From contig CM060732.1 in assembly GCA_030704615.1 (NCBI GenBank), positions 2,418,001-2,482,000 on the forward strand: a stretch of 64,000 nucleotides of DNA, read 5' to 3'. Under the pieces are notes generated by a model. The model worked only from the letters and a program-made list of their open reading frames with translations. It was not told the origin of the DNA and did no database searches. How positions within the stretch are numbered: the first letter of the stretch is position 1; the number at the start of each line of letters is the position of its first letter. This stretch comes from Takakia lepidozioides (lineage: Eukaryota; Plantae; Bryophyta). Positions 12,807 to 56,992 of the stretch are shown piece after piece. The translations under genes and the position numbers were made by a program.

Positions 12807-14100
12807 CTATACAAGTCCTCCAAGGCATCGTGGACACAACCATTCTCCACTAGGAACCTCCTCAAGTGGCGGTGTCAAGCATCCCATGTGCCACCCCCTT
12901 GAGCATTTGTCACACACCAACATGGTCGCGGCACCACCAGCATGCCCACATAGCATGCAACGCAACCCTGCAGGTACCACTGCAAGGTTGGGATCTATCC
13001 TCCCATCCACATGTGGAAGGTGACATGACGCACAATTGCGCACATGGTCCTTTCATACCATGCCATCTCGACCCTCCAGAATCAACACTCCTGAAGGCCA
13101 CACCTCCCGGACCCTTAGAATCACACGCCTTGCTGTGACATCCAAAGTCGTAGGCGCTGTCTGTTGCAGATACACATAGTCCCCAAGGTGGAAATGCCGA
13201 ATATCTGGCCGATATCCCCCTCCACGTATAGTGGTGTACCTCAATGTGTCTCGATGTTGGGCAATAGTAAGGTTCTCAAAAGCCATAGGCATGACTCTCT
13301 TGAACAACTCTGCCCGCTGGGCACATGCTTGTGTCCACACATTCGGATCATCAAGGTTGAGAACTACTGCAGTCTCCCTGCGAATAGATGCAGGCAAATC
13401 TGGCTCTCGGCCAAAGAGAAGGAAATAAGGCGAGAACGAGGCAAGTGATGCTTGTTTGCTAAACCTGTAGCCCATGGCCAACCAAGGTAGCTGAAGGTCC
13501 CAATCTCCTAAGTATCCCTTCTGCAAGCCTCGCTTAACTGTTTGTACAACCCTCTCTGTCAGTCCATCAGCCTCGGGATGATCCCGAGAAATAGTACGGT
13601 GATCTATCAAGGCTTGCTCACACCAAGAACTCTCTCCCCTGGTCCGTGAGTACCTCGGCTGGAGCACCAAATTGGCTAAGCACTCGATCTAAGAATGCAT
13701 ACGCAGCCCCCTCACTTGCTTTGTTAGGCAATGCCACCAGTTCAATCCACTTGGAGAAATGTTCCACCATCACCAGCACATACTTGTTATGGCGAATCGT
13801 TAGTGGTAATGGGCTTACGAAGTCAAAACTTCAACGATAGCCCAAACCCATAATGGGTAAAAGATGCAATTGTGGAGTAGGTGCATTGAAAGAAGCTCGC
13901 ACTCTATCACACACCATGCACCTTGCTACTAACTGTTGCACATCCGTGTGCATGCCCCGCCACCAGTACTGTCATTGCAGCAAACTATGAGTGCGCCGCA
14001 CCCCAAAATGTCCCAACTCCTCATGGGCATGGCGTACCAATCGCGCTCGTTGTGTTGGATGAGGCACAATCCTCACTCGTCCATCCTCCCATACTCGGAG
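12807..14100 (-). pseudogene. Integrase with C-terminal PHD finger
   Basis: HHCC zinc finger and catalytic core fragments, then CMLC...LVCDKC...WHMGCL.PPL..VP.GEWLCPRC, a canonical C4HC3 PHD. Confidence 0.9.
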
Positions 14101-14479
14101 TAGGTGAGTCCCCTCCCACTTAAACCTCTTGGCTCGTTGTATGATCCGATCTCTCTCCTTAGCAGTCACACTGGCTGTTGTCTCTCTAGTACGAAGGTAG
14201 GCCAACACTGCTGCATCTTCATGCTCATCTTTAGCACCACCAAGCTCCTCACTGATCTCCGGATCGTCATGCACACCATCTACATGACCAATGCTATGGG
14301 ATGGACCAGCTTGAGCTCCCATTGCTAGGATGTACAAAAAAGCAGATGCATGCCATGCTGGCACCATCTCCTCATCCGTCTCACCATGCCACCGAGCTCC
14401 AGTATCATCATGCTCGCTCGTGCATGGATTACGACTCAATCCATCTGCATCCCGATTGACAATACCGGCTCGATGCACC

Positions 14480-15896
14480 ACTTGAAAGTCGTATTCTTGA
14501 AGCATAAGTGCCCACCGTGCAAGCTTCCCTGTAAGCTTGTCTGACTCTATCAACCACTTCAATGGTTGGTGATCCGTGACAAGTTGCCATAGAGGTAGCA
14601 TCTGAAATGTGTCACTGCCCATACCGCAGCTAGACACTCCCCTTCATAGGAACTATACGTCGCCTCGGCATCATTGTTTGAGCGGCTAGCATATGCCACT
14701 ACAAACTCTCTTCCCTCATCATCCATCTATGTGAGCACTGCTCCAATCCCCAGCATACTCCAATCCGTATGTAGCTGGAAATGCCGCCCCCGAATAGGCC
14801 GCCTCAGAATAGGTACAGAAGTCAATCGAGCCTTGAGTTCCTCAAAGGCTTCCTCCTGCTCCTCCTCCCACTGCCACTTCTGACCCACCTTGGTCAACTT
14901 AGTAAGAGCCTTTGCAATGCTGCTAAATCCCTTGACAAACCGTCGATAGTAGTTTGTCAACCCCATGAAAGCACGAACTCTGCTAACATCTATGGGGCGT
15001 GGAATGCATGCAATGGCCTCCACCTTCATCTTTTGAACACCCAATCCTCCAGGGTATATCATGTGGCCCAGATACTCAATCTGGTTGTGGAAGAACTTAC
15101 ACTTCCCAGGGTGCAATTTCAACCCATGCGCTCTCAAGCGTTCAAACACCACATGAAGGTGTCTCTCAAGCTCCTCAACTGTAGCACTAAAGACGATGAT
15201 GTCATCAATGTAACACCGGACAAAGTCTAGCCCCGCGAGAATCCTATCCATAACCCTCTGAAACTCTGCAGGAGCATTCTTCAACCCAAACGGTAGGAAG
15301 CGCCATTGGTACAAGCAATCCTTCCCATGTTGGTCAACCCCCCAGAATGTCGTCTTTTGCTTGTCAACCTCTTTGATTGGCAACTGGTGGTCACCGGATC
15401 GCAAGTCCAATGTGCTAAACACCTTCGCATGCCTAATGGCATCAAAGATTTCCTCTGGAGTTGGCATGGCATATCTATCGGACTTAGTCTGACGGTTCAC
15501 AGGACGATAGTTCCCACACATCCTTCTTTCTGTCCAATTGCCATAGATATCCTTCTTAGCTGGCATCACCGTTGCCGAGGCATACTCCCCGCCTGACAAC
15601 TCCACCAATCCAGCTTCGAACAACTCCATAGTCCGTGACTGGATCAATGACCTCTCCATGTCACTATACCAGTAGGGCCTTCGAAAGATTGGTGTGTCAC
15701 TTGCCAAATCAATACAAATCTCCTGACCCTTCAAACTCCCCAAATCCTTCAAACCGAAGGCAAAGCAATTTCTATAAGCCCTTAGAAATCGCTGGATCCT
15801 CCGTCTCTCTCCTCCGGTGATTGTAGGTCCAACAACATCCTCTGGGGAAGAAACATTCTCAACCTCTTCAAAAACATTGGCCACATTGGCCTCCAA
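14480..15896 (-). pseudogene. Reverse transcriptase - RNase H of the Gypsy element
   Basis: ORF 14727-15896 with RMCGNYRPVN, LDLRSG, PFGLKNAP, YIDD, YLGH, FMGLTNYYRRF; RNase H continues in ORF 13972-14637. Confidence 0.95.
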
Positions 15897-16079
15897 CTGA
15901 TCCTCAGTTTATGGCTCTCCCCACTCCTCATACTGCTGCTTGAGAGATTCCGCATCTCATCCCACATCTGCCATGGATGTTTGCACCCATGATCCTGTGC
16001 TCGCCCCCACTCACTGCCTCAACCGTCCCGGTTGGCAGAGGGGATACAATACCAAATGGGAGTGCAGAAGTAGCCACCA

Positions 16080-17060
16080 CTGTCTGCAACCTCCGTTGCT
16101 TAGCCATGCACAAGCCAATGACCCATGTCAAGCAATTTAGATCCATTGCTTGACCCAACACATGTCGGCGTGATGCCTCTGACAGAGCTGGCACAGCTGT
16201 AGTGCCCGTGGCAAATCCCATTGCCCACTCTCGCTCATCTGCATTGGGCTTCACCAATTGTTGTAGCACATTGTCCCAAATCAACCCAGGACCATTGTCT
16301 CAAAAAACATGAGACGAGGGAAAGCTCATGAGCGTAGGCAAGGCCACACGTGGCTGCCCCACTCGATTTACCATTGCTAGAGGTGGACGGTCATCATGTC
16401 GCACCCTCTGTGGTTGCCTCCCTTGGTCCAAAATGCCCTCAACTATGAGATTGGGTGGGCGTTGAATGGAACCATATGCTCTCTTGAGCAGCTCTGGTGG
16501 TGCAAGATTGGTCCACCACAATCGAGGTCGATGCGCTCGTGATCCCACCGCTGCTGCATCCAATAGCACTGCCGATCCAATCCAAGAACGCACCTGATGC
16601 ACACTGGCCATAACCCTGGCCCGAAAGTCCCCCATAAGAGGAACATTCTCCAAGATATAGGCTAGAGGTTGCACTTGCATCGTCTGCAAGTCACGCAACA
16701 CTTTCAACATCTCCCAAAACAAATGCGATCGTGCATCATGCAAGCCGTTCCCATGACCTGCGGGAGAGTGTCCTTGGCAATGCTATCCAGCTGTCATCAA
16801 GTCAATGGCACCATGCTGGTCCAAATCATCCGCCCCCAGCAAGGTAATGTCTGCTGGCAAGGCCTTTTGATACCCTTGAATTGCTGAGAGAGGCAACAAC
16901 TCAGGATATTGGTGTGTGAGCAAGGCGATGTGACGCATAGAAATACGCCGAGCTATCTCATCCTTTTCCTCATATAAGTACTTGAGTACTTTAATCCCAG
17001 CTTCCAACACTTCTACAAGCCCAGTGCTCATGCCTCCAAACAGGTCTAGCAAACAAATCC
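16080..17060 (-). pseudogene. DNMT3-like C5-cytosine DNA methyltransferase domain inside the retrotransposon pol (copy 1)
   Basis: Motif I LLDLFGG, motif II YLYEEKD, ADIT, motif IV DLMTAG*HCQG (copy 2 DLVIAEWPCQG), motif VI YILENV, motif VIII AHRPRLWWTN, motifs IX-X EREWAMGF...RRHVLGQAM. Same frame as the protease, interrupted only by stop codons. Confidence 0.9.
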
Positions 17061-20000
17061 CTGAGTCAGGTGGTTGCTAGGTAATGGGCACTATGTCCAG
17101 AGGAGCTAACTGAGGAGGTCCAGGTGATGTCACTGAACTCCCCTCACTCATCAATGGAAAGGATTCCTGCCATGCTTGGTGCACACTCTCGCCTGCTACT
17201 TGTTGCAAATTCCCAACCGTACCCCACAGTGGAATATGCACAGGCACATGAGGAAGCAAATCAGCCTTGTATGCCAATTGTTTGTCCTCATCAGGTGGTG
17301 GCCTATCATCTGCATGGCTATTGCCCTCCAAGAGCTCACCACCCCAAGCCACCACCCCTGAAAATGCAGCCAATGTGGGCATCATGTTCCTATGATCCAC
17401 CGCTGCATTTCCAATAAACCGCACTGGGAGTAGTGCACGTCGGCCATCCCCTGACTGCCATTCTGGCCTGTAGGATGCCGTTTCTTCCCAAAAGTCCAAA
17501 ATAAAGCCCATCGGGTATAACACAGCCCCACCAACAAGCACATCATAAGACATCGCGTCCGTAACAATGGCTTTAGCTCTCATGACAGAGCCATTTGTAG
17601 GATGATCTGGTTGCAATCGAATGAAGAGCTCATGGCGTGTAATCCCTCGTGCCTTCTCTGAACCGCCCAAAGATGTTTGAATTTGGAAAGGACAAGGCTC
17701 CACATCCGCCTCTGTAAGGCCCAAGCCTGCAATTGCTGCTCTCCCCAACATCAATGGCTGTGCTCCCGAGTCCAACAAGACCCGCAATGGCCTATACCTC
17801 TTCCCGGCCGGGCCACCCAGCTGAAACACACCATCCTGATTGTCCACCGGGACTACCCCAGGAGTCACCATACTATGCTCAATGGCTGGTCTAGCTGACA
17901 ACTCTTGCAACCTTGCAGCTGCCGCTTGCCATGGCGCAGCTATGGCTGTCTTCACCCTTGAATCCAGGGCATCCATGCACTGCACCTGATCCGCTATCCC
18001 CGCAGATAGTGCCGATGCATCACCACTCTCATAGAGTCCAGTCTAAACACTGCAACTGGCCGCATCCCCGACATTGCAATTGTCGTGGCAGAAAACAATG
18101 GAGCTTGGCAAATTGCCGTAGCCGCCCCCAACAATGTACTGGCTGCACCTTGCTTTGCAGCACCACCCACTGGCATTTCCCGAGCCACACTAACTCTCCC
18201 CAATGGCACTCGTGGCTCTACCTCTGACACACTTGGGCGAGCGTGTGCCATCGATGACATAGTTGGCACTATCTCAGCCAATGTAACCTCTTTGTGGATC
18301 AAAACCACATCCGCTCCTCTTGGCTCAGGAGCATGCGTTGTTGCTCGAGTGACAGCAGCTGCAGAGTCCACATGCAATGGTCCTGCAAGTGTAGCTCCAC
18401 ACATGAAACCCATACCAATCTGGTCTTCCCTAGGCATAGGAGGTTGTGCAGGTGGGGCTTGAACCTCAAGCCTTGGAGCTGGCGCAACATGAGTAGTGGC
18501 CATGGCAGCTAGACGTTGCTCTAGCTGGGCAAGTCTATCCACCATGCCTTGGTCATGACCTTGACCCTGACCCTGTGCTCCTTGGTTTTGGTTACGTTTT
18601 CCAGCCCGACCTCTGCCTCCTCTACCTCTCTGGACTACATTGCCTCGTCCTCGGCCACCATTGTTCCCTTGGAACTGGCCTGGCCGTAGCTCAGGATGCA
18701 AGTCATAACAATGGGCCTCTTCATGCCCATACTTGCCACAATGCCCACATTGTAGTTGTGTAGGCTGTGCCTGTGCTGGCCCTTTGCCTCTTTCCGGGCA
18801 ATCTCTCTTAACATGGGGCCTCCACACTCCCAACATGTCACACCCGACTATTGTTGGCCTGAGAATGAAGGAAGTGACCTCTGCAATTGAGATCCTCTCG
18901 ACCCTTCCCTGGGCTTCATCTGAGCCCTCTTGTTGCCTTGAGCACGTTGGGGTAGTGGTTGTTGTTGGCTAGGAGCCCCACTTCGTTGTGTCTCCTGACC
19001 AAACCCCACCATGACCACTCGCTCCTCCACCATATTGAGCTCTATCCGCTCTGTCAGCAAAAACACATTTGCTAAGTGGGTTGGTCCACTTGTAGCACCC
19101 TTCTCCTTAGCTCTTTGTCCAGGATCCCATACCAGAACTGGATTGCCTGAGCTTCTGTAATCCCTTGGGTTACGTTTATCAAGCGCCTCATGCGAGTGTA
19201 AGCTTCCCTCAAACTCTAAGTAGACCTTCGTTGGAACTCTTGCAAGCTCCGCAACTTCTCTGTCCTTATCCCTTGGTAGTTTCTCCTCAACTCCTCGAAG
19301 AACTCCACAACTGGGTTAAAGACATGCATGGGTGCTAGTGTTGTAGCAGGAGCTTGGGTGGACTTCCCAGCTCTTGTTCCACTTGACGTCTCACTGCTGT
19401 TTGCAGAAGCTGCTGGTGTAGCTGCCGGTGTCACCACTACCCTTGTGCCTCTAGTGATGGAGACATAGTCAGGTGACCAATACACCCGCCATTCCTCAAT
19501 CTCTTCCTCATGTCCCCGCCTAAACTCATGGTAGTCATCCATGGGCGGCCCCTCAAGGTGCTGAAACAGCCCCTTCCACGCCATAAAAGGCGTAAACAAT
19601 TGTGGATTATGCATCTGCTACAAATCACACCAACTATCAAACTCCTGTATGAAATCATCAAGCTCGATGGTGCCCACAGCTCCAGAGTACCGACGTGGCC
19701 CCTTGGTAGCTCTATACATTTCCTCCATCGTATCCCACAACACTGGCACGGAAATGGCTTGCACCCTCGGCGAGAATCCTCCTAACTCTGAGTCTGAACC
19801 TTCCTCAAAAGACACTGAAGGTGAAAGTGGCATAAAACGCACACCTCGTCTTGTATACCCACTAATATCGCTGGTGCTCGTACCGGCACTCTCCTCAGCA
19901 ACTGGTGGCATCTCCGTGATGAAAACTCACAACCACACTTGTTGTAAACCTGTCTCTAATCCCCCTTTCCACAAGGTAACCGGGTAGAGAACCTGTTGCA

Positions 20001-20529
20001 GCTTATGGCTTAGACTACTAGGTTCGTAACATAAACCTGCACCTGCATCCACTACAAGCACTCATATGGTCTGCTGGTCATCAACCCAGCCTCACCATAA
20101 GAGAAACAATGATGGTCTGACTGGTCATCACCCCAACCTCACCACCGACAGCATGCTCTAGGATTGGCCGGTGATCAAATCCAGACCAACCTCCTATGAA
20201 AACAAGCGCCCACACAAAACTGACATGGCGCACAGTCAAGCATGCAGGTGTGGGGGGGATCCAAACACAAGAAAATCAAGACAGTAACTCCCCCACACCA
20301 AAAATAACACTCCACAGTGTCGCTCCTGCAAGGACACCCCAGCCCAAACCCGGACTGACTCTTGCCTCCACCTACGGAAAGGTTTTGGCCTACATATAGG
20401 GTGGAAGACTACGAGGAAGAGAAACTAAAGCAATTCCTAATCCCAGAATGCTCTCATCCCACTAGTCTCCCCCTATCTCTAAACGCTCTTGTTCATGACC
20501 AACAGACATAACTACCTTCCAGGGTCTCT

Positions 20530-20860
20530 CAAATAACTCTCCAAGAGCCCTCAAGATGTCTCTCAAACAATCTCACTAAGGCCCCCAAAGCTTGCCAAAT
20601 CTTGGCCCTCAAGGACCCCAAAAAGTCCTTCAGACAAGTTGCCAAAGACTCCTTAAGCTCGCCAAATATTAGCCTCCAAGGACCCCAAAATAGTCCTCCA
20701 AATAGCCCTCCAAAGGCTCCAAATGTTTGCCAAATATTGGTCTTCAACGACCCCCAATAGTCCTCCAAATAGTCCTCCAAACACCCCTTCAAGAGCTCTT
20801 CAAGTGTCTTACAAAAGCTCCTCAAAGGACCCCCCAAAGATCCTCCAAAGCACTACTCCT
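20530..20860. repeat. Degenerate short tandem repeats
   Basis: Recurring units such as CCCCAAATAGTCCTCCAAA and GCCAAATATT/CTTGG.CCTCAAGGA. Confidence 0.6.
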
Positions 20861-20892
20861 CCAGATACACCCTAGATGTCATATCTTTTAAT

Positions 20893-21105
20893 GAAAACGT
20901 ATGGTAGGCAAAGTCTCTCCACTTGTATCCATACACTGTTTACAAAAGGGTATGGTGGAGCAAAGGGAGCCCATATACTGTTCACAAAAACGTATGTTGG
21001 GCAGAGGGGGACCATACACTGTCCACAAAAGTGTATGTTGGGCAGAGGGGTTCCATACTTTGTTCACAAAAGTGTATGGTGGGGCAGAGGGAGCCCATAC
21101 TCAGT
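20893..21105. repeat. Tandem repeat, ~41-42 bp unit, about 5 copies
   Basis: TGTTCACAAAAGTGTATG(T/G)TGGGCAGAGGG(A/G)..CCATAC repeated. Confidence 0.8.
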
Positions 21106-22639
21106 TTCTTGACGAGTATGGAGACTAGGGTTTGTAGAGTATAGTAAGAAACATTCTTCATGGTATCTTCCCCCCTAACATGCATGCAAGATTGCATTAT
21201 CTTACTTTGCAATGCATTCATCCCAAATTGACAAGTTCTTCTTGATCTCCTTGGAACTCATAGCAAGCTAATGTGCCCAATGACAAGCGCCAAGCCTTGC
21301 TTGAATTTGAATTTTGTATGCCATCTTCCATGTGCTTTCCCTTGCATGGGCTAGTCACACACACTTCCACCTCTTGACCTAGGTGTTCTCTTCATTCATC
21401 ATAATGTGTATCCACACCTCTATTCAAGAGCTCATCTTCTTAAACTTGAAGTCACAAGCCCTAAAGAGCATGCTCCACATAAGCATCACTTGCTTGATCA
21501 ACCATCCACCACAAAACTTAAGCAAAAAGGGAATGAATACATGAGCTTCACCTTCCCCTTCCTTGTCTTGTCACATACTAATGTATGGTTGAAGTTGCTA
21601 TGCATGCCGTGAGCCACAATCACATTTCTTCATGAAGACCACCTCCAATGATCTCCCACATGTGCTCCAAGCTCTTCAATACTCTAGGCTTGGTTTCACA
21701 TCATCATGGATAGAATTCTCACCCACATGCTTCCATTTGGAGTCATCTTGAGCTTCTTGATGCTCCAAGTGGTTGTTTTTGTTGTCTTCAAGCCCTAGCC
21801 TACGTAGCTCTTTGGCTTTTCTTCCACAACATGCACCACCTCATACACAAGGAATGAACTTGCTCACTTCACCTTCTAGCTCTCCTCAAGCTTGAACTGG
21901 AAGCCACACTTGGAAAGCATGCTCCACACATGCGCCACTTGCTTGGTCAATCACTTGCTTCACCAAGAGCAATCCAAGAACTCATAGAACTAGCAAAAGC
22001 ACTCCCTTCTAGCGCCGCCTTCGCTTGCTTGTTTGTCAATCAAATTAAACCCCACTTGGCTTCATTTCACCATGGATAGAAGAACCACTTCTTATCTTCT
22101 CTTGAGCTATTCAATGCTCCTCAAGCTACCCTTGTTGTACTCCTTCTATGGTATTTCCAACCCAAGCATGTGCCGCTCTTTGGCTTCTCTTTCACACCAT
22201 GAACAAGTACTAGAGCTTGCTCTTGAAACCCCTAGTGTTTATCTTCTTCACACACAAGACGTTTCTCTTGTGATGCAAGAGCTCTTTTCCAAGCTCTCAA
22301 ACCCTTAGTGCACATACAAACACTTACCTTGCAAAACCATGCAAGCTTTGTGATACAAGAGCTCTCTCCTTAAGCTCTCCACCTCTGCAAAGTCTTGTAA
22401 CTCAAGAGCTCTCTCCTTGAGCTCTCCACCTCTTTGATGCAATGCAAAAACACTCCTCCTTGCAGCACCTTGCAAACCTTGTGAGATACTTAAGCTTTCC
22501 TAGCTCTCTCACTCCTTGGTGTACACCAACACAAGTGCTAAAACTAATCCTTACACTCCGCACTCACAAGCATAAGGTGATCTTCTTGTAGTGATAATGG
22601 AAGTGAACACACAATGGAAACACTCCACTCATGAATCCA

Positions 22640-22955
22640 CTCAATCACATAAACTAAGTCAAGCCAAGGGCACCTTTGCTAAATGAATCCACCATACAAA
22701 GCCCTCACCACACTCCTCTCAATACCTAGAGCTATGGAGGTGGGAGAGGCTCATGGAGGCTCAACTACAAGAAGATGAGCCATCCTTAACACTCACAAGG
22801 GGAAAACCCATCCCCATGTCCCAAGTGAGGTTTGACACCTCACTTGGCATGTGAGACCAAATGAAGTCCCAACACACAAAATACAATATAAATATCCAAA
22901 ATGTCCTAGTTAACTAGAAGTAGGTAATTCTAGTTAACCATGACTAAAACTATGA
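22640..22955. repeat. Dispersed repeat with a second copy at ~50425-50740; possibly LTR-derived
   Basis: Shared blocks AAACTAAGTCAAGCCAAGG, CTAGAGCTATGGAGGTG, TAACTAGAAGTAGGTAATTCTAGTTAACCATGACTAAAAC at both loci. Confidence 0.8.
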
Positions 22956-23745
22956 CAAAACCCTAGAATTACAGGGTCACATGCTGCGGGCTGTGGAGCG
23001 AAGGATGCGCTGAAGCTGGAGTATGTCGTTGGGTGACAAGCAGCAATGTCAAGGCTCATTGTGAGCAATTCTCACTGCAACATTTGATGTCTTGTAGCTC
23101 TTGGTTATTAAGCTTAGCGGCTGGGTTTTTTATTTTTTATTTTTTATGATAGTGGCTTAATTGTTGTTCAGCTTCTGCAGCTTTATGGTTAGCATGGAGA
23201 TAGGATGTGGCTGGCAGGGCGGGAAGCTGGGATGGCAAGTGGATAGACGGGCGATAGGCTATAAGCCTGGTGGCTTCATCATTTTGGCTGTCTTTTTCTA
23301 GATAGTGGTTGGAGTGTAGTATGAAAGATGGAGGGTGATGTGGTGAACAAACCTAGAAGCATTTGAGCGGAGGCTGTATTTTGGGAGGATATTGATGTAC
23401 TAGAGGTGATGGCGATTTGAATGGAGAAGTGTGCAGCCATTTTGGGGCATCTGGTGTACATGTCTTCGTTGGGTTGAGTGTAGCTGCAGCAGCTGAGTAT
23501 TTACAAAGTCCCATTGGGATCTCTGTAGTCTTCAATTTATAGCTCGTTCTGCTCTTCTGTCTGTTGTATGTAGGAGCTGCTGTCTGTTTAGCAGTGGGTG
23601 GTGTCTTCGCATGTAGTTGATACTCTGGAATTTGATTTTAGTAGACTAACCTTCATGTTTCTGAATTAGGTTGGGTAGTAATGGGGTTTTTATCTTAAGA
23701 ATGGTTTTTGCACTTTGGGTTGCTGGGTATCAAGTGAGGGGAAGC

Positions 23746-44561: not shown

Positions 44562-46916
44562 TCTCTATTATCAAATTAAGTGAAGACTATTGTCTATTCT
44601 AGGATAGCCAATTCTTACCTGCAATCTTCCACTACGAGGACCAGAAATGCTTGGCCATATATCTACAAAGAGCTCTGGACCTTAGCAAATCTGTTGATGT
44701 TGAGTAGTTGTTTTTGGGCTGCTTGTGAGAGCCCCACTTTCTTTCTTGTATCCTGCTTCTTTTTCCATAAGCTCTTTAAGCTTCCCGTGGACACCAAAAA
44801 GTTTCTTCCTTTCTGACCCGAGCCCTCGCTATATCTGTCAGACTCACAAACAAAGGTTGCAAGACCTCCTGGTATGCAACTTTTTTGTGCGCAGCAGACT
44901 CTCCATTGCTTCCCTACTGCCACAAGATATGGAGGGGGTGGAAATTGCCGCAATAGATGGTTCTTCAGTCAATCTCACTCTATCTTTCTAGTAGCTACGG
45001 CAAACAACGTCTTATGAGTACAATCTATCTTTCTAGTGCAAGCAGGCTCAAATGGTCAACATGCTCCTGGGCCATCTACCAGTAGAGATTCGCAAGCTGT
45101 GAACCCACCCTGAATCTTCCCAATGCCTGACATGAGCTCGAGATAGAGCTGCAGACAAGTAATTTGGCTGTAAGATTCGGTTGTTGTGGTGTCGTGGTAG
45201 AACTGCAGCTTTGTTGTAAAATTCTCTTGTTTCCATTTACTGGACGTTCCTGTCAATGAGCTTGTTGCTGTCATTTTTGGAAGAAATTTCCAGCCCGAGT
45301 ATTTTGTGGCAGTATCCTACTCGAGTGTATCTGGAGCATCCAAGTGGTGTAATGGAATGGTAAAAAGCTTAAATGCCAATCAATCGGAACGAATGAATAA
45401 ATCTTATGTATGTTCCTTGGGAGAGATTAGTGTCCCACAAGTGATAAAAAAAACACACCCTCAACCATGAGTCCCTCTACTTATCATACCACTTCTCTAG
45501 CCTCACGGCAAATCACCGCTCTTAACAAAATATGTCTTACGCGGACAAAGGAACACCCTAGTGAATATCAAGAACGGACCAAGAAAGAAGAAAAATACGA
45601 ATGCGCGAATTGGTTATATTTGCTATTTTAATTTCTAGTGTTTCAAGTTCAAAACAAATCTCAATTTATAATGAAGAAGTTATTGTAGCTTTAAGTTTTG
45701 TAGGTTTTGTTATATTTAGTCAAAACCTTTGGTGAAACTTGAAAAGCTACGCTCAAAGAAATTGGAGAGCAAGAGGTCTTAAAACCAGCTGCTGTGAGTC
45801 TCGTAGAGGTTGTGAGTGCACGGACTGGCAACCACTTGCAGGGGAGACATGTCAGTCTTGTCAAGATGATTGTTAGTCAAAACATGGCTTTGAGTTCGAG
45901 TGGTATGCTAGCAAATTCAGCTCTTATATGGTGTTGTTCTCTAGCCCCACGCATGCCTTGAAGGTAAGATGCCTGTAGGGGTTTCAGATATTTCTCCCAA
46001 CAGGAAACAGGGATCCCAGGGGCACAGAATCACAGCCATAGACAGTGGCAGGAGTGGCAACCAAGGGGAAAAGCCACTTTGCAGGTTTATTTGTTAGCGT
46101 CGTGTAAGGAGGCAGCCTTTCTCTTTTCAGCCTGTCCTTGTATCCCAGATTTGTATGATTTAACATGAAATGGAATTTCCAATCAACCTGGCCAATAGTT
46201 TGTTGAGGTTTGTGAACTCCTATAAATGCACAGGTGGTTTTTGTAGGAAGACGGTAGATTATGCCAGGAGGACCACATTGTCAGCATAAGGAAGCACTGA
46301 TTGTGTTGGAACCCCATCCAAAGGCACCCCCACTCCATAGCAATGGAGCCCTACAACACGTGTATGTATAGGCCAATAGTGATAGAGGACAACCTGTTTC
46401 ACCCCAACATTGCTATGCACTTACCTGAGAACTCCACTGCCACCTTCACTGTGCAATGGCAGAACCATATATGCATAAAAGGCCAGTATGATGTCGTCAG
46501 TTACCTGTGTAGCTTCTCCAGAAGGAAAGGAAGAAGAAAACAAAAGAAAAGAATTGGTACTTTATGACGTCCATGGAAAGCTCAAAAAGCTTATGGGACA
46601 AGAGAAAGCATGAAACAAAAAAGAGAGTGGGGCGCTCAATAAGTAGCCTGAAAACAAGAAACTTTATGAAGTAACAGGATTTGGAGTTTTGCCCTGTGAA
46701 TATCTGTGTATGTTGTCTGGTTGATAAATTGATGACATTCTGACACTCATCTGTGGCAGCCCAGAAAGATTGTGGGGCCTCCTTGTGCCCCTCTGTGGGC
46801 AGAGAAGAACAACCAGCTTTACTATGTGCTTGACCAGGTTATCCTGCAACCAATTGCGCTTGCTGGGAATCAAATGCAGCTCAAGTGTTCCTGAGGTCGA
46901 CCTAGGGCTGTAAAAG

Positions 46917-49799
46917 ATGGAGAGAGTGCCAATGCGATCTGCTTCACGTTCGACAACTATGACCCACCTCTACCTCTCGCAGCATGCCTCCCGCAGTAAC
47001 TTCAGACTGCTGGAATTTAGGGCCACATGTGTCTCAACATCAATCATCTGTTGTACTACAGCTTCAGCCATATCCAATGCTTGGACCTTAGATCTTGGAA
47101 CAGGGGTTACCATGCGGAGGCTAGAACTGCAAGGCGGTAGATGCAGGAATGCTCCTTTGTGTGCAGAATTGAGGGGTGCTTGTTGGGGCCTACCACCGAC
47201 AGTTCCAAGAAGGCGCAGCTTAAGGTTGGTGCTTTCGGGTAAATGTGCCAAGAATATAGCTGTGCGACATACATCTGTGGAGTTGGTGGCGGTAGAGGTG
47301 CAACAGGAACTTGCCACATCAGAGGTGGTGCTATTAGAGGTGCAGGGCATGATGTGTGGTGCGTGCGTCGCACGCGTTCGCAATTTGTTGCAATCGCATG
47401 AGCAGGTACAGTCAGCTGCAGTAAACATGCTGACGGAAACTGCAGCCATCCGCCTCCATCCCGTATCTGCAGACAGCAGTGGGAACCTGGGCACTGCCCT
47501 TGCTGCTTATTTGACTCAATGTGGGTTTCCTTCCAAGCAAAGGGAGACAGGGAGTAAGGAGGAGAGTGTTAGAAACAAAAAGCAAGATCTGACTAGGAAG
47601 CGACAGGAGTTAGTGCGCAAGAGCACAGTTCAGGTGGCATTTGCATGGACACTTGTGATGTTGTGCTGTGGCACACATGCCACACACCTGCTGGGCCTGC
47701 ATTCACACAGCCACATGCTGGGATTTTTGCATGAGCCACTCTGGAAGTGTTCTATCGCCTCTGTCACTCTCCTGGGACCAGCTCGTGAACTCTTAGTCGA
47801 TGGTGCCAAGGCTTTAGGGCGGCGGTCCCCCAACATGAACACCCTGGTTGGCTTTGGAGCTTGTGCTGCATTTGCCATCAGTGCTGTTTCTCTGGCAAAT
47901 CCAGGTTTAAATTGGGATGCTTCCTTCTTTGATGAACCGGTTATGTTGTTGGCCTTTGTGTTATTGGGACGATCCTTGGAGGGACGGGCACGTGCACAGG
48001 CTTCCAGTGACATGCAGGAGCTCCTGTCGTTGGTGCCTTCTAACTCGAGAATGGTAGTTCCTGAAATTGATGAAGTGGAAGCAGGGGATGAGATGGTGTG
48101 GAGCAAGGATACCCTGATGCAGGTGGATACAGAGCAAGTGCGGGCTGGCGATTGTGTGCTTGTTCTGCCTGGTGAAACCATCCCTGTTGATGGGAAGGTG
48201 GTGTCTGGGAGGAGTGCAGTGGAGGAGGCTATGCTGACTGGTGAACCCTTGCCTGTGCCAAAATCCAAGGGTCACTTTGTGTCCGCAGGAACCATCAACT
48301 GGGAAGGTCCTATCAAGGTTGAAGCCATGGCTACTGGGGCAACCTCTTCTATCTGTTCTATTGTCCGACTTGTGGAAGAGGCACAGGGACGGGAGGCACC
48401 AGTGCAAAGGCTGGCTGATGCGATTGCAGGTCCATTTGCATACACAATCATGGCTCTCTCTGGGGCCACATTTACCTTCTGGTATACCTTGGGAACAAGC
48501 CTATACCCAGACGTACTGATGAACAATACCGTAGGGGCTGATGGAGATGCTCTGCTTCTAAGCTTGAAGCTTGCAATTGATGTGCTCGTAGTGGCGTGCC
48601 CATGTGCACTTGGTCTGGCCACCCCAACGGCTGTTCTTGTTGGCACATCACTTGGGGCAAAAAGGGGCCTCTTGTTGCGAGGGGGGGATGTATTGGAGCG
48701 CTTGGCTGGTGTAGATACCATTGTATTTGATAAAACGGGAACCTTGACAGAAGGGCGCCCCAGTGTGGCAGGGGTGGGTGCTGGGAAAGGCTTTGGGGAA
48801 AATGAAGTGTTGCTACTTGCTGCTGCAGTGGAGAAGCACACAGCCCACCCCATTGCGACAGCTATTGTAACCCAAGCTGAAAGGCAGTTGCTCGAGTTGC
48901 CAGGCACGCAAGGTCAACTCACTGAACCTGGATTTGGGGCTCTTGCAGAAGTGGATGGTCGTATTGTAGCTGTTGGCACATTTGCATGGGTTCGTGGTTG
49001 CTGCAAAGAGGGTGTTATCGTGGGTGCTTCGCAGCAGGCCATCAATGAATGGGAACTGACAGAAGCCCTGGCACCAAGGGCCAGCACATCCTGCTTGGAG
49101 AAATCACAGACAGTGGTTTTCGTTGGGGTGGAAGAGCATGGGGTGATAGGGGCAATTGCTGTGACTGATAACCTCCGCAAAGATGCAAAAGAGACAGTTT
49201 CCAAATTGCAGGGCAATGGATTACATGCTGTGGTGCTTTCTGGTGACAAGTGTGAGGCAGTGGCAAAGGTCACAGCAGTTGTGGGGATCTCAAAAGAAAG
49301 TGTGCATGGCGAGTTGCGGCCTGAGGACAAGTCTGCTTTCGTCTCTTCCTTGCGCGAACAAGGTGCTTCGGTTGCGATGGTTGGAGATGGGGTGAATGAT
49401 GCTCCTGCACTGGCATGCGCTGACGTGGGTATGGCCTTGAAAACACAAGCTCGTGTGGATGCTGCATCTGATGCAGCTGATGTTATTCTTCTTGGTAACC
49501 GCCTTTATCAGGTAGTGGAGGCCATCGACTTGTCACGTGCAACTATGGACAAAGTCTACCAGAACCTCGTGTGGTCTCTTGCTTACAATGCCATCTCGCT
49601 TCCTCTTGCTGCTGGAATGTTACTTCCCAGCTTTGATTTTGCACTTACACCCTCCCTTGCTGGTGGGATGATGGCCATGAGCTCTATCATCGTCGTCACT
49701 AACTCACTGTTGTTGCGTCTCCACCCTTTTCATTCACATCCTGAGGCTCGTTCCCAGCAGCGTGCCATTTTGTCAAAATCACAGCAAGCTGAAGCATGA
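46917..49799 (+). CDS. HMA8: Copper-transporting P1B-type ATPase, plastid PAA2/HMA8-like, intronless (true start may be a downstream ATG)
   Basis: HMA motif [62 protein letters not shown]; N-terminal extension compatible with a transit peptide. Confidence 0.92.
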
Positions 49800-51084
49800 T
49801 TCTCGGTGGTGTTACCTATTGCTCCTTTTATGCCTGATGGATGCCATGCAGGTATGGAATTTGTGTTTTTTCTACGAATTCCCGCGCGTGGCGTTTATTT
49901 TTGTACATTTTCGGATAGTTCCCATTATGCACGACACTGCCAGACCCAACAAAATCATATTGTGGAATTAAATTGAAGTTGTCTCCAACCTTCTATGTAG
50001 GATCCAATATCAGAGGATTTCCGTGGCTTACAGCAGATTGCACACACCTGTCACCGAGTGGTCATGTAGAGTTATGGTCGTTCACATGCCTCCCATAACT
50101 TGGCTCCAGTACATGTGATAATTTGGCATGCACTTCTCACAAGATATGGAGGTGGTTGTCATGCAGAAGAATATAAAGCTCATCCATACGCATGCTTTGG
50201 GGAAGAAAACATCACCTATTTCTACCACACCATAGACACCATAGTGGAGCAATGCCGAAAATTTTAAATTGATTTGTCATTTTCAAAATAGTGCGAAGCG
50301 GGATTGTGTGCTCATGGTGTCGTGTACTTAAGCATCGTGCCACAACATACATCGTTGTCCACCACACATTGTAAGCACACAATCCTCGAAAGCTATGCTT
50401 AGCCCTAGCCTTCCAAGTGAAAATCCACTCTATAACATAAACTAAGTCAAGCCAAGGTCACATTTGTTAAAGGAATCCACCCTACAAAGCCCTCAACACA
50501 CTCCTTCTAGTCAATACCTAGAGCTATGGAGGTGAGAGAGCCTCATGGAGGCTGAACTACAAGAAGATGAGCCTCCTCAACCCTCACAATGGGAAAACCT
50601 ATCCCCATGTCCCAAGTGAGGCTTGACATCTCACTTGGCATATGAGGCCTCCTAACACACAAAATACAAATATAGATATCCAAGATGTCCTAATTAACTA
50701 GAAGTAGGTAATTCTAGTTAACCATGACTAAAACCATGATAGCTGTCGTGCACCTAAGCATCGTGCCACAACATACATCGTTGTCCACCACACATTCTAC
50801 GCACACAATCCTAGAAAGCTATGCCACAATCGCCCCTCTAGCTGGTGACTAGGTCCCTCTAACACCGGATAGCCGACAAGTACTGATCATAATTGCATCA
50901 TTCAACCGCACATGTTTCAATTTTCTAAAGTCTATGGATCAAGAGGTGCCCGGGTGCAAAAAGAGCCTTGTCGTTAGTCATATGCTTGCAATCCATGATA
51001 TGCACATGAGTATCCATGGCGTTGAACTCCCAATAGATAGACCTGGGGTTTTTGTCAGCCTCCCCATTGTCATGTCCATTACTT

Positions 51085-52080
51085 TTATCCAAGGCATCGT
51101 GGGCACAACCATTCTCTGCTAGGAACCTCCTCAAGTGGCAGTGTTAGGCACCTCATGTGTCACCCCCTTGAGCATTTGTCCACACCAACATGAGCATGCC
51201 CACATAGCATGCAACGCAACCCTGCAGGTACCACTGCAAGGTTGGGATCTATCTTCCCATCCACATGTGGAAGGTGACATGGCACACAATTGTGCACATG
51301 GTCCTTCCATACCATGTCATCTCGACCCTCCAGATCAACACTCCTGAAGACAACACCTCTCGTATCCGTAGAATCACACGTCCTGTTGTGACATCCAAGG
51401 TCGTTGGTGTTGTCTGCTGCAGATACACATAGTCCTCGGGGATGAATCTCCGAACCCCCAGTCGATATCTTCCTCCACGTATAGTCGCACACCTTAATGT
51501 GTCTCGGTGTTGGGCAATAGTAAAGTTCTCAAAAGCCATATGCATGACTTTGAACAACTATGTCCGCTGGTCACATATTTGTGTCCACACATCCGGATCA
51601 TCAAGGTTGAGGACTACTGCAGCCTCCCTGCGAATAGATGTAGACAAATCTGGCTCTCGGCCGAAGAGAAGAAAGTAAGATGAGAAGGAGGCAAGTGACG
51701 CTTGACCCATAGCCAACCAAGGCAGCTGAAGGTCCCGATCTCCCAGGTGTCCCTTCTGCAAACCGTACTTGCGTAAACCCCTCTTAACTGTCTGAACGAC
51801 TTTCTCTGCCAAGCCATCAGCCTCGGGATGATCCCGAGAAGTAGTGCGGTTGTCTATCAAGGCTTGTTCACACAAAGCCTGAAACTCCCCCACGAATTCT
51901 CTGCCCTGATGTGTAGTACCTCGGCTGGAGCATCAAATCGATTAAGCCCTCGATCTAAGAATGCATACGCAGCCCCCTCACTTGCCTTGTCAGGCAACGC
52001 CACCAATTCAATCCATTTGGAGAAATGTTCCACCATCACCAGCACATACTTGTTATGGCGCATCATCAGTGGCAATGGGC
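51085..52080 (-). mobile_element. Integrase-PHD fragment of the same Gypsy family (copy 3)
   Basis: Colinear with 12818-13815: NKYVLVMVEHFSKWIE, HPEADGLAEK, CMLCGH...WLCPRC. It is followed by a PPT-like AATGGGGAGGC and TG at 51057. Confidence 0.9.
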
Positions 52081-55000
52081 CTAGGGTTTTTTTTTCTTAA
52101 TATTATTTCGTTACTGATTTTCTGTAGAGCTTCCATAATCAATGTACAGACCTAAAATCCATTGATATTAGGCCCCCATAGCTCTTATAAGCATGGAGGA
52201 CCTTCACTAACTTGGGAAAATGTGGGTTTGATCAACGCATCATCTACTTCCGTGTTAGACTCAACGACTGCCTACCCCAGTCAACTGTTATTCTCTACCT
52301 ACGTCAGTTCCACGGACTCGGGCATTATCCCGGGCTATGACTTCCTCTGGTGTTACGAAGGTTGGCACGCGTTCAAAGTTCACTTCCCCGCCCTCGCACC
52401 AGAATCGCGCCAAAGCTCTCTCGATTAGCTCTGCCACGTTAGCTACACATGGACGGTCGTCGTCGGGCTTCTTAGTGCTCTCTATCAGTGCTACGACGTA
52501 ACCCAGTGCCCCAATATAGCAGAGTCAGTAGTCATGCTCGCCCCTGGTGTAGTCCACGAGAGCGAGGATGGATTGGTTGATCTGGTCCTCGCTCATTCTC
52601 CTCCTCGTTCGTCTAATTAACTAACTCCCTATCCGGGTTCTTGCCCTCCGGTGGCTACACTATGAAGTTACAGTGTCACACTTTGGGGGCAAGCTCCTAG
52701 TGCTGATCCATACAGAATGCAAGAAACGACCAACAGATTGACACAACACGATTACACAGCGGATTCCCTAAAGATCTCCCTTCGTACTCTTTTACTACTA
52801 GGGAAATTCCCAAATCCGGGATGCCTGGACACTCCGTCCTACCAGTATAACGTGGGTCTCAGCCCGAGTATTCTCCTAGAGTGGTGTCTCTCTGCTGACT
52901 ACTGCTCCAGCTTGACAACCCTTTGTTTCTACTGTGGCTGGCCCACCCCTATCCCCCTCTTGCTTTGGCAATTACGGGCAATCACGCCTCTCTCCTTTGT
53001 TGTTGCGTCCTCCGCTTGAGCCTACACCTCAACACTCTCCCAAAATCATAGCAACTCCTCCCTTGGCGCTCCTCACCACACTCTCTCGCTCTTCTACTTG
53101 CTCTCTTGCCAATTGGTAAGCTCTCCCTTGCTCTCCTGCAGCTCCTGCCTATCCCACTGTTTGGCGTCCTCCACCCTACTACCTTCATGATTGCCTCCGG
53201 GATTCTCCACAGTAAGCTTCCCGAGTAATGATTGAGGCATGAAGTCATTCCTTGGCTCAAGAAAGTACTATGTCCTTACAGCAGTCCGTCCTTCTCGTTG
53301 CCTCTTGTGCCCCTGTACCAGTACACCTGCCTCATCGGTTTGGGCGTTCTTGTAGTTGGAGTTGGACTCGTAGCCTTTGCACCACTCTTAGTCTTCACGA
53401 AGCTCGTAGCCCTTTTCAACATTCGACACCATGACAACCTGCTGGCATCACGCTCACGCCACGTCACCTGGTGTGAGCGTACGTTCACACCACGTCACCA
53501 GTGTGTGAGAATGAACTATCAGGGGGTGAGAACAGAGAAGTTGCGGAGCTTGCAAGAGTTCCAGCGAAAGCCTACTGAGAGTTTGAGGGAGGCTTACACT
53601 CGCATGAGGCGCTTGATAAGTGTAACCCAAGGAGTTACGGAAGCTCAGGCAGTCCAATTCTGGTATAGGATATTGGAGAAGGAGCTGAGGAGAAGGGTGC
53701 GGGATGCAACTCTCCTACAAGTGGGCCAACCCACCCTAGCAAATGTGTTTTTGCTAGCAGAGCGGATAGAGCTCAATATGGTGGAGGAACGGGTGGTTAT
53801 GGTGGGGTTTGGCAAGGAGACACAAAGAAGTGGGGTTCCTAAACAACAGCAACAACCCCTTTAACGTGCTCAAGACAACAAGGGGGCTCAGACAAAGCCC
53901 AGTGAAGGTCAGAGGGGATCTCATATGCAAAGGTCTCTTCCTTCATTCTCAACCCAACAACAGACGAGTGCATCATGTTGGGATTGTGGTGGACCACATG
54001 TGAAGAATGATTGCCCAGAGAGAGGCAAAGGGTCGGCACATGCACAGCCTACACAACTATAGTGTGGGCATTGCGGCAAGTATGGGCATGAGGAGGCCCA
54101 TTGTTATGACTTGCATCCTGAGCTACGGCCAGGCCAATTCCAAGGGAACAATGGTGGTCAAGGACGAGGCACTGTAATCCAGAGAGGTAGAGAAGGCAGA
54201 GGTCGTAACCAAAACCAAGGAGCACAGGGCCAGGGTCAAGGTCATGACCAAGGCAAGGTGGATAGACTTGCCTAGCTAGAGCAACGTCTTGCTGCCATGG
54301 CCACTACTTATGTTGCGCCAGCTCCAAGGCTTGAGGTTTAAGCCCCACCTACACAACCTCCTAACCATGCCGCTGCATTGTCTATGGCAAATCAAATTGG
54401 TATGGGCTTCATGTGTGGAGCCGCACTTGCAGGGCCATTGCATGTAGACTCTGCAGCTGCTGTTACTCGAGCAGCAACTCGTGCTCCTGAGCCAATGGGA
54501 GCGGATGTGGATTTTGATCCACAGAGAGGGGAAGCAAGTCGACAGACAAGGCTTCCCCAATCTTTTACATTGGCCGAGACAGTGCCAACCACACCATCGA
54601 TGGTGTCGGCTCGTCCAAGTGTGTCAGAGGTAGTGTCACGGGTGCCATTCGGGAAAGTTGGTGTGGCTCAGGAAATTCCAGTGGGTGGTGCTGCAAAGCA
54701 AGGTGCAGCCAGTACATTGTTGGGGGCGGCTACGGCGGTTTGCCAAGCTCCATTGTTTTCTGCAATGACCATTGCAATGCCGGGGATTCGGCCAGCCGCT
54801 GTGTTTAGACTAGCAGCTAGACTCTGTAAGAGTAGCGATGCATCGGCATTATCTTCGGGGATAGCAGATAAGGTGCAGTCTATGGATGCCTTGGGATTCG
54901 AGGGTGAAGTCAGCCACAGCTGCGCCATGGCAAGCGGCAGCTACACGGTTACAGGAATTGTCAGTTAGGCCAGCCATTGAGCGCAGCATGGTGACTCCTG

Positions 55001-55546
55001 GGGTAGTCCTGGCGGACAATCAGGATGGAGTCTTTCAGTTAGGTGGCCCAACTGGGAGGAGATATAGGCCACTGCGAGTCTTGTTGGACTCGGGAGCTCA
55101 ACCATTGATGTTGGGGAGAGCGACAATTGCAGGCTGGGGCCTTACAGAGGCAGATTTGGAGCCTTGCCCTTTCCAGATTCAGACGTCTTTAGGTGGTTCA
55201 GAGAAGGCGCGAGGGATCACACGCCATGAGCTCTTCATTCGACTACAACCAGATCATCCTACGGATGGCTCAGTCATAAGAGCCATAGCCATTTGTTACG
55301 GACGTGATGTCATATAATGTGCTTGTTGGTGGGGCGGTGTTGTACCCCATGGGATTTACTCTAGACTTTTGGGAGGAAACAACATCCTACAGGCCAGAGT
55401 GGCAATCAGGGGATGTGCACTGCTCCCAGTGCGATTTATTGGGAATGTAGCAGTAGATCATAGGAACATGATGCCCACATTGGCTACATTCTCAAGGGTG
55501 GTGGCTTGGGGTGGTGAGCTTTTGGAGGGCAATAGCCATGCAGATA

Positions 55547-56953
55547 GGGGAATGCTTGCGCGTGAGCCTAGCCGCGTGAGCCTGTGAGCGTGTGAGCCCA
55601 GCCAGGGTCACGCCACGTCAGCAAGGTTTCCCACGTGCAAGACCTAATTCCGCGGATGCCACCTATTTCCGCGGAACTATAGGCGACTACTACGCCCCAG
55701 ATTTGCCAACATTAATTTCCGAGAAGTCTCATCCCTCAATCCAAATCTTAGTCGGATGAGAAATCACGGGTGGTTTGTGGATGATTTTTGTCCACGGGCA
55801 CAGGATATTTCAGATAGTACAATGTCATGTTGTGTAATGAACACGAAGGAGAATGAGTTTGTTCTAACGAAGTTCCGTCCCTCCAATTCACATCCATTTT
55901 TCATTGAAAGACGTTCTCCAGACAAACACCAGGAAATCCCTAAAGCGTCTTTGCGGTTTATGAAAAAACATGGTGCAGAACAGGTTGGCAAGACTTGCAA
56001 TGCAAGACACGAAACGAAGAACAACAGGGCCAGCAACCATACAAAATGCAAAAAACAGTCCTAAAAAAAGAATGCTTTCATTTCTCAAATCAAGGTTGCG
56101 TCAACACAAGGTTGATTTGCATCACCCTCCCAGGAAAAAAAAAACAAAAAAAAAACAAACAAACAAACAAACAAAAAATGATGCTTTCATTTCTCAAATC
56201 AAGGTTGCGTCAACGCAATGTTGATTTGCATCACTCCCCAAGGAGGAAAAAAACAAAACAAATCTTCAAAAAATGATTGCAAAAAATGATTGGGTTGATT
56301 TGCATCGCCCCCCAGGGAAGGGAAAAAAAAAATCAAAAAATCAAAAAATCAAAAAATGATGCTTTCATTTCTCAAATCAAGGTTGCGTCAACGCAAGGTT
56401 GATTTGCATCACCCCCAGGGAGAAATAAAAAATAAAAAATAAAATGAAGTCGTATGTCTGTCGGTGTATGTCACGTCATCAATCGTGCTGTGCGTGCGTC
56501 TACCATTTGTTGCATTCGTTCCCCAAACTCATTTGTTCATTTGCGAACACATCAAGTCACAGTCAAATGAACATTCTCGGAAATCAACCTCGTGTTAATA
56601 CAAGGTTCATTTCAAGTTCTCTGAAATCAACCTCGTGTTAACACAAGGTTGATTTCAGTTCTAGGAAATCAACCTCGTGTTAATACAAGGTTCATTTCAA
56701 GTTCTCTGAAATCAACCTCGTGTTAACACAAGGTTGATCTCTTCGGACGCCCTAAACCCTTAACCCATCTCACCTTCAGATGGTGAAATCCCACGGTTAT
56801 AGGCCCACCATCTTTGTGGTGACGTGGCACAACCTTGGGTGGGCTCACGCCATATCAGCACCAGCGCCACGTCAGCGCTGTGAGCGTAGGCTCACGCCAC
56901 ATCACCATTGTGTGAACGTACGCTCACACGTCAGGCTCACGCGGTAGCATCGT
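55547..56953. mobile_element. Non-autonomous DNA transposon (1407 bp) with 8-bp TSD and imperfect TIRs
   Basis: TSD TGCAGATA at 55539-55546 and 56954-56961. Ends GGGGAATGCTTGCGCGTGAGCCT and AGGCTCACGCGGTAGCATCGT. The empty site is visible in copy 1 (~17305-17320). Contains internal palindromic repeats. Confidence 0.85.
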
Positions 56954-56992
56954 TGCAGATAATAGGCCACCACCTGATGAGGACAAGCAATT

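Follow-up and report, generated by a model that had tools for sequence, protein, structure and literature searches.

Why would a retrotransposon carry a DNA methyltransferase of its own, how would it produce the enzyme, and how does such an element come by its ends? These questions are raised by a locus of the moss Takakia lepidozioides (assembly GCA_030704615.1, contig CM060732.1, positions 2,418,001 to 2,482,000 of the forward strand), a stretch of 64,000 nucleotides that we refer to as the window. It contains a decayed Ty3/gypsy element on the minus strand (copy 1, 19911-12819) with the order gag, protease (PR), C5 cytosine methyltransferase (MTase), reverse transcriptase (RT), RNase H (RH), integrase (IN) and PHD finger, together with parts of two further copies. 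The sole Gypsy example of a retrotransposon-carried MTase has been tested once, without a result. We regard it as fairly probable that copy 1 is a dead member of a high-copy moss family of the Gypsy-DNMT3 kind, in which the MTase would be made with Gag, packaged and used to methylate the element's own new DNA, and in which the PHD-tipped integrase would insert this DNA from an end-joined circle.

The methyltransferase and the family that carries it

Copy 1 is laid out as follows, from its 5' side:

22634..22957, minus strand: repeat A1, probable 5' end of copy 1; begins TGTCA; 88% over 327 nt to repeat A2 of copy 3
20557..22633, no strand: 2.1 kb of non-coding DNA that separates A1 from the leader and contains short tandem repeats; summed contig depth, a rough measure, far below that of the neighbours
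19912..20556, minus strand: 5' leader of the element; as over the coding part, the number of covering contigs is very large
18043..19911, minus strand: gag with two motifs resembling zinc knuckles, interrupted by stops and shifts of frame; PF03732, E 2e-4 (below the cut-off)
17080..18042, minus strand: aspartic protease and linker; LLDSGA, Asp at about 17770; PF13650, E 0.012 (weak)
16075..17067, minus strand: DNMT3-like C5 cytosine MTase; motifs I-X in order; two in-frame stops, one of them in motif IV
15845..16011, minus strand: MTase-RT junction, with an in-frame stop at 15909-15911 and two changes of frame
14490..15844, minus strand: RT (YIDD) and RNase H; PF00078 (RVT_1), E 5.9e-30, and PF17917, E 3e-13
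13053..14060, minus strand: DDE integrase and H2C2 zinc finger, broken; PF00665 (rve), E 8.8e-11, and PF17921, E 4.3e-6
12819..13052, minus strand: integrase tail with a C4HC3 PHD finger (about 12959-12825); PF00628, E 4.7e-12

All coding regions of copy 1 are disrupted by stops and frame changes, and in-frame stops were read as X in the Pfam scan. The copy stops abruptly at about 12819, directly behind the PHD finger, and its own 3' repeats are lost. Position and strand suggest that A1 is part of copy 1; the stretch at 20557..22633, which gave no Pfam match in the three minus frames, is likely a later insertion or a subfamily-specific leader. An earlier note, made from the letters of this DNA alone, had named a protease, an MTase, RT and a PHD-tipped integrase here, and we recovered all domains at the stated coordinates, on the minus strand; MTase motifs I, IV, VI, VIII, IX and X could also be read as it described, in the protease frame. 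For comparison we used 80 related loci (labelled L) as the set for counts of junctions, residues and ends, and related proteins (labelled P). The order PR-RT-RH-IN with a DDE integrase, which defines Ty3/gypsy elements, is present in copy 1 and in intact relatives. At the integrase C-terminus, where chromoviruses of the Tcn1 type have a chromodomain, we found none and a PHD finger instead. Neither open reading frame (ORF) of the intact relative L057 contains a tyrosine recombinase family, and rve and protease are present, which separates the element from DIRS/PAT. The protease match improves to E 2e-4 (PF13650) in L057, and the gag of copy 1 matches the N-termini of the Marchantia ORF1 proteins P0002, P0004, P0007 and P0008 at 54-62%.

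The DNMT3 likeness that the earlier note had read from the motifs was borne out by sequence and by predicted fold. PF00145 matched the MTase of copy 1 with E 2.2e-10 (41 bits, cut-off 22). The 29 top sequence matches in the PDB were DNMT3A, DNMT3B or DNMT3C (best E 4e-9), and bacterial enzymes followed at 7e-3 or worse. A structure model built from 77 sequences reached a predicted local distance difference test score (pLDDT) of 96.5 and superseded a poor model from 6 sequences (pLDDT 46.5). With it, Foldseek ranked DNMT3A first, and VIA-align gave Z 28.6 for DNMT3B (root mean square deviation 2.7, 271 residues aligned) and 27.4 for DNMT3A, compared with 25.4 for M.MpeI, 23.0 for M.HhaI, 17.5 for MET1 and 17.3 for ZMET2. 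By these two measures, the MTase is DNMT3-like.

The catalytic residues are conserved across the related loci (Cys in 72 of the 73 that cover it, Glu in 70/76, Asn in 74/76). Five Marchantia proteins of 1278-1281 aa represent whole gag-PR-MTase ORFs, and all seven tested MTase motifs are whole in the Marchantia ORF1 proteins P0002, P0070, P0077 and P0078. We calculated ratios of nonsynonymous to synonymous change (dN/dS) by the Nei-Gojobori method for pairs with a usable proportion of synonymous differences (pS), setting aside most between-family pairs as saturated. Between copies 1 and 2, dN/dS was 0.26 for the MTase (312 codons) and 0.09 for the protease; comparison with copy 3 gave 0.22 for the integrase and 0.53 for the PHD region (62 codons). 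The earlier note had proposed setting the MTase against RT, and this yielded 0.12 versus 0.05 for L057/L050 (pS 0.22) and 0.11 versus 0.05 for L057/L059. The MTase is under purifying selection, with dN/dS of 0.11-0.26.

A second copy of the MTase lies elsewhere in the window:

53506..55545, plus strand: copy 2, 3' part of gag and protease; 84% to 17308-19289
55546..57237, no strand: two insertions that resemble DNA transposons, both in the linker between protease and MTase of copy 2: one at about 55546-56953 with an 8-bp duplication, the other at about 56995-57237 with a 7-bp duplication and terminal inverted repeats
57238..58503, plus strand: copy 2, MTase, ending before the RT junction; 89% to 16010-17280; PF00145, E 1e-8

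The MTase had been said to recur at the same position in copy 2. The recurrence stands, at 89% identity; the position does so only in part, since the two insertions split the protease from the MTase and no RT follows. Both insertions are non-autonomous, and the first contains short tandem repeats and has an end resembling 53452-53508, the broken start of copy 2. Two LINE-like (long interspersed nuclear element) fragments (24412-26001 and 58553-59216) are 75% alike with a weak RVT_1 match, and one of them adjoins the cut end of copy 2.

The MTase is a family trait and not a one-off capture, as the earlier note had supposed. On 12300-23050 (10.7 kb), 44,152 contigs of run X1, which may be the source sample itself, can be mapped, a figure that is not a copy number, and summed contig depth is about 1e5 over the element versus 146 in the flank; all 30 bins of this region are covered, that of the MTase included, indicating a large family containing the domain. 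Besides the 80 loci, a profile search returned 426 clusters (50% identity) at E<=1e-30. The MTase search found 23 proteins, including ones from Marchantia polymorpha, Calypogeia fissa and Sphagnum fallax, and the RT search found 46, adding Klebsormidium and Closterium, with P0028 from Coleochaete. Among the best 150 profile relatives, the MTase stood behind RT in 55, before RT in 8, with integrase only in 15 and with neither in 72, and a PHD finger was present in 47; the 55 belong to other branches, in which the MTase lies between RNase H and integrase. In the RT and MTase trees, the window copy adjoins liverwort and peat-moss elements (SH-aLRT, the Shimodaira-Hasegawa-like approximate likelihood ratio test, 98 with 9 rows and 97 with 21 rows). 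These are quick trees of rows picked by likeness to the query, with L011 left out of one and an unresolved backbone. The Klebsormidium and Closterium RTs form a neighbouring clade (Klebsormidium P0045 is 47% identical), and the outgroups are two long branches. No relative of the element was found in the viral contigs searched. P0124, an ORF2 of the same clade, is deposited under an uncultured cyanobacterium and is probably a mis-binned plant contig.

Reading frames, repeats and a possible life cycle

The coding part of the relatives is divided into ORF1, which comprises gag-PR-MTase (about 1280-1370 aa), and ORF2, which comprises RT-RH-IN-PHD (about 1040 aa); the two share a frame, and a single stop with CAR(YYA) behind it parts them. 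L057, which is intact, contains just these two ORFs (1369 and 1047 aa) and the one in-frame stop. The phrase "inside pol", used for the MTase in the earlier note, does not hold as worded: the MTase closes ORF1 in the relatives, RT lies in frame past the conserved stop, and in copy 1 the RT is out of the MTase frame. From MTase end to RT start, 58 of the 80 loci could be followed. Both were in one frame in 45 of these junctions, and 53 had a stop in the RT frame and then CAR (TAG 38, TAA 15), a triplet found behind just 41 of the 870 other in-frame stops. Seven loci (L003, L046, L047, L050, L057, L059 and L065) have CARYYA in full, and most others have five of its six bases. UAG followed by CAR YYA is described as the readthrough signal of tobacco mosaic virus (TMV), for which in vivo readthrough of about 10% is given (PMC2754532). 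Even between families with saturated synonymous sites, the frame, the stop and the CAR triplet are conserved. The junction thus suggests that MTase and protease are made at the level of Gag and RT-IN-PHD by readthrough.

The 3' repeats are seen in copy 3:

51088..52083, minus strand: integrase core and PHD; 82% to 12819-13817
50744..50843, minus strand: polypurine tract, then repeat B1 (50828-50744, TG...CA)
50420..50743, minus strand: B1/A2 junction (near-palindrome CA-GC-TA) and repeat A2
50318..50419, minus strand: repeat B2 (50398-50318, ends CA), joined imprecisely to A2 with 19 bases added and 4 missing; B1/B2 94% over 81 nt

In the window, repeat A stands upstream of copy 1 (22957-22634) and the series B-A-B follows copy 3 (50828-50318); no single window copy has both ends. 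In the relatives L033, L061, L063/L067, L069 and L046, the ends are A-coding-B-A-B. We dropped the idea that A1 is part of an unrelated long terminal repeat (LTR), as the relatives show the same A/B layout. A and B each start with TG and end with CA, a purine tract lies directly before B1, and this tract and the primer-site position behind A1 are placed as in a normal LTR element whose LTR is B+A. The B1/A2 join forms a near-palindrome CA-NN-TG, found also in L057, L059 and L047, in the window and in the distant L074. A 4-bp target duplication is exact in six of the nine insertions with both flanks, and three of four bases match in the other three. The relatives accordingly combine TG...CA termini with a target duplication in the usual range of 4-6 bp. 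Two ordinary LTRs at the ends were not found; the element has A at one end and either B-A-B or B at the other. Intact LTR-bounded copies, for which the earlier note had advised looking, are therefore the wrong target. The NCGN target preference described for Phygy in the main text of PMC6317226 is absent from the nine duplications examined. L074 (2-12341), in which the MTase lies between RNase H and integrase, continues behind its B/A palindrome with a 2153-aa ORF lacking a Pfam match; we read this locus as a tandem copy or collapsed repeat.

The A2/B2 join consists of the end of A, two bases (GT or AT) like those before B1, and then B in five distinct insertions of one family (L008, L018, L033, L063/67 and L069). 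It contains extra bases in L061 and in copy 3 of the window, and in L077/L080 it retains nine bases of the sequence behind A1. In the same family, B is followed by A in eight distinct insertions, and tract and B are followed directly by the flank in another eight; left out of this count are L006, which reaches a contig end, L014 and L016/L041, which have internal deletions, and L077/L080.

Judged from this layout, the true LTR would be B+A, and the integrase would open an end-joined circle inside it. The life cycle we propose would run as follows. Readthrough of about 10%, predicted from the relatives and not from the window's own family, would yield ORF2, leaving the MTase at Gag level and RT and integrase scarce, and the MTase would be packaged in the particle. 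Ordinary reverse transcription would produce BA-coding-BA, the ends of which would be joined. Cutting of the B/A palindrome of the left LTR by the integrase would give A-coding-B-A-B, and 1-LTR circles or B1-B2 recombination would give A-coding-B. The MTase may mark the complementary DNA (cDNA) or the circle de novo, most likely at CG. The solved domains closest to the PHD finger are those of CHD4, PHF12, KMT2D, KDM5A/B, PHF21A and UHRF1, most of which bind unmethylated H3K4; the finger of the element presumably has no aromatic-cage Trp. By binding unmethylated H3 tails, it might steer insertion away from active promoters. A broader version, that a large and old green-lineage clade integrates circular DNA through a palindromic site inside the LTR and uses a leaky TMV-type stop to load Gag-level DNMT3 for methylation of the circle, is one we put forward tentatively and with more doubt than confidence.

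Alternative explanations

A number of observations weigh against the proposed life cycle, and we give them with the alternatives on which they bear. The lesions of motif IV differ between the two MTase copies (G*HC in copy 1, EWPC in copy 2), as the earlier note had said, but another MTase stop (16297-16299 in copy 1) is common to both, so not all lesions differ. This site encodes Arg in 65, Lys in 11, Glu in 2 and a stop in 2 of the 80 related loci; parallel decay or a common defective parent is possible. Motif IV reads GWECQ, with Glu replacing the Pro that precedes the catalytic Cys (P0256-P0404), in 59 of the best 150 distant relatives and GWPCQ in 37, so that not all distant relatives' MTases need be active. 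The CpG ratio of the element (0.47) is not set apart from that of the host gene (0.41), that is, there is no special CpG loss, and the Klebsormidium enzyme produced no methylation in yeast, a result called inconclusive by its authors (PMC5890265). GWECQ, the CpG ratio and the yeast result would fit an MTase that has been kept to bind DNA or RNA or as a structural part of the particle, and not as an active enzyme, a role that Gag-level amounts would also suit. We consider this improbable: the S-adenosylmethionine (SAM) loop, the catalytic Cys, ENV and the two arginines of motif VIII are all conserved in the close clade, the same yeast assay did not work for human DNMT3B either, and the related SymbioDIRS-Dnmt3 enzymes are reported to methylate CG de novo (PMC5890265). 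The enzyme might, on the other hand, be active on host chromatin, at the insertion site or genome-wide, and not on the element's DNA. A PHD reader and a DNMT3 writer are united in one element, and the host DNMT3b of Physcomitrium is described as methylating heterochromatin de novo (PMC6453930). In the element's clade, however, the MTase belongs to ORF1 and the PHD finger to the far end of ORF2, and the MTase position between RNase H and integrase in other branches leaves no fixed link to the PHD; we hold little expectation that the host is the substrate.

The junction raises similar objections to the proposed cycle. Five of the 58 junctions (L016, L041, L049, L052 and L062) have no stop followed by CAR, and about 46 of the 53 that do are of one peat-moss-type family with a hexamer that is mostly CAACCC (44 loci), short of CARYYA. 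At the matching place of copy 1 (about 15865) there is a sense codon and no stop with CAR, together with two frame changes and the other stop, and its family may therefore express RT otherwise; as copy 1 is nested among families with the signal, decay and secondary loss are both possible. ORF2 could be translated from its own start on a spliced or internal RNA, the stop truly ending ORF1, and the window's family may even have one continuous ORF. The peat-moss-type family has a Met three codons past the stop, the annotation of a Coleochaete transcript gives ORF2 as complete, and deeper branches contain continuous MTase-RT proteins. This Met is not conserved (Val in L003, L057, L059 and L065), whereas frame, stop and CAR are, and an own start appears rather unlikely to us. 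Turning to the ends, B2 was nearest to its own B1, or tied, in four of seven cases, and no circle was seen in the data. A self-priming match behind A1 was strong (12-14 of 14 bases) in only three of 13 loci and weak in ten, and the site itself is near-palindromic; L069 has a 16-base exact match with a long stem (z -3.1, 3/200 shuffles), and the window family yielded no such match. Short direct repeats often recombine, and A-coding-B copies could be later B1-B2 recombinants of A-B-A-B ends that arose by extra RT template jumps on linear DNA, as proposed for DIRS/PAT, with ordinary free ends offered to the integrase. Imprecise joins would fit such jumps too, and the repeat layout is that of DIRS elements (PMC5890265). 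However, tract and primer-site position match a normal element with LTR B+A, the position of B2 beyond A2 would leave it out of what is copied from the RNA, and A-coding-B is as frequent as B-A copies (eight distinct insertions each) though B is only 113 bp. Template jumping is thus a contender that we regard as doubtful, and cleavage of a circle inside the LTR is the reading we retain.

Surroundings of the element and comparison with known systems

The window also contains a host gene and several features apart from the element:

46914..49799, plus strand: intronless 960-aa PAA2/HMA8-type copper ATPase
474-3480, plus strand: decayed tandem array of PLS-type pentatricopeptide repeats with an E-like end and many frame changes
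11423-11495, minus strand: tRNA gene (RF00005), the sole Rfam match
32500-33160, 42195-43100 and 46527-46657, both orientations: three pieces of another dispersed repeat
60165-62472, minus strand: two long ORFs of 315 and 274 aa without a Pfam match, probably another mobile element

Among its named matches, the ATPase is closest to moss proteins, with identities of 72% to Ceratodon and 68% to Physcomitrium, 65-67% to liverworts and 54-63% to vascular plants, and the host is in this sense moss-like.

The family occurs in mosses and liverworts, and whole ORF1 genes are annotated in Marchantia, which brings it into organisms with methylation mutants and transformation. Its Marchantia loci include Mp4g09160, Mp5g06330 (with an intact MTase domain), Mp5g06860 and MpVg00370. 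If the circle and the leaky stop are as we propose, both could be tested in a genetic model through the Marchantia polymorpha copies with whole ORF1. The end structure offers an explanation of DIRS-like repeats on an integrase element; if this is true, the element would be among the few natural examples of integration from circles. For annotation, the element's ORFs inflate DNMT counts in bryophytes, and LTR finders will misplace the 3' boundary of the element.

REM1 of Chlamydomonas is reportedly a PHD-bearing Gypsy element. PHD fingers in retrotransposons are already known (PMC6673714, PMC9940879); in the Chlamydomonas element Gypsy-7a_cRei, the PHD likewise lies in the Gypsy polyprotein and has been proposed to steer insertion, but unlike the moss element it has an ordinary LTR pair, and no MTase is named in the sections consulted (PMC9940879). 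At the junction, the in-frame stop between two ORFs and the hexamer are those of TMV-type readthrough (PMC2754532), which for the element is predicted; Candida Tca2 has a gag-pol stop (PMC2194720), whereas the stop of the element lies behind protease and MTase. As to the ends, the integrases of foamy virus and HIV-1 provide the nearest parallel. HIV-1 integrase is said to cleave the palindromes of 2-LTR circles, as foamy-virus integrase does. For the latter, the substrate of the DDE integrase is described as circular DNA with a CA-N-TG palindrome (PMC1180852). In both viruses the site is the LTR-LTR junction and the product a normal provirus, whereas the site of the element would lie inside the LTR, permuting the ends.

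The closest known system is KnitGypsy-Dnmt3 of Klebsormidium nitens (de Mendoza et al. 2018, PMC5890265), described as having Dnmt3 in the Pol ORF, Ka/Ks <0.2 and DIRS-like repeats, the last noted in a figure legend. The moss element shares with it a Gypsy polyprotein with an intronless, unrearranged Dnmt3-type domain, A-coding-B-A-B repeats and purifying selection. It is therefore a land-plant variant of the described Gypsy-DNMT3 kind and less novel than the earlier note thought, which had known of no characterised land-plant family: members exist in Marchantia, Calypogeia and Sphagnum and we found no paper on them, but the element type is known from Klebsormidium. Later papers ascribe "Gypsy-DNMT3" only to "streptophytes" in the parts consulted (PMC12344493; bioRxiv 10.64898/2026.05.21.726589), and methyltransferase and PHD go unmentioned in the main text of the REXdb paper (PMC6317226). 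Our search, mainly of the open literature and with Repbase and REXdb sequences outside it, turned up no publication that describes a bryophyte family, the readthrough stop or the mechanism behind the ends. What is new and testable is the ORF junction and the end structure. In contrast to KnitGypsy-Dnmt3, the moss element has a land-plant host and a very high copy number, and in its clade the MTase ends ORF1 before a conserved stop, where a "Pol polyprotein ORF" is given for the algal element (PMC5890265). Target duplications, tract, palindrome and repeat mechanism receive no account for KnitGypsy-Dnmt3 in the text portions examined, nor is a PHD mentioned in the supplements searched (PMC5890265). 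SymbioDIRS-Dnmt3 and SymbioLINE-Dnmt of Symbiodinium are likewise retrotransposons with a C5 methyltransferase, the former with A-B-A-B repeats; they use a tyrosine recombinase or are LINEs (PMC5890265), whereas the moss element has a DDE integrase and 4-bp target duplications.

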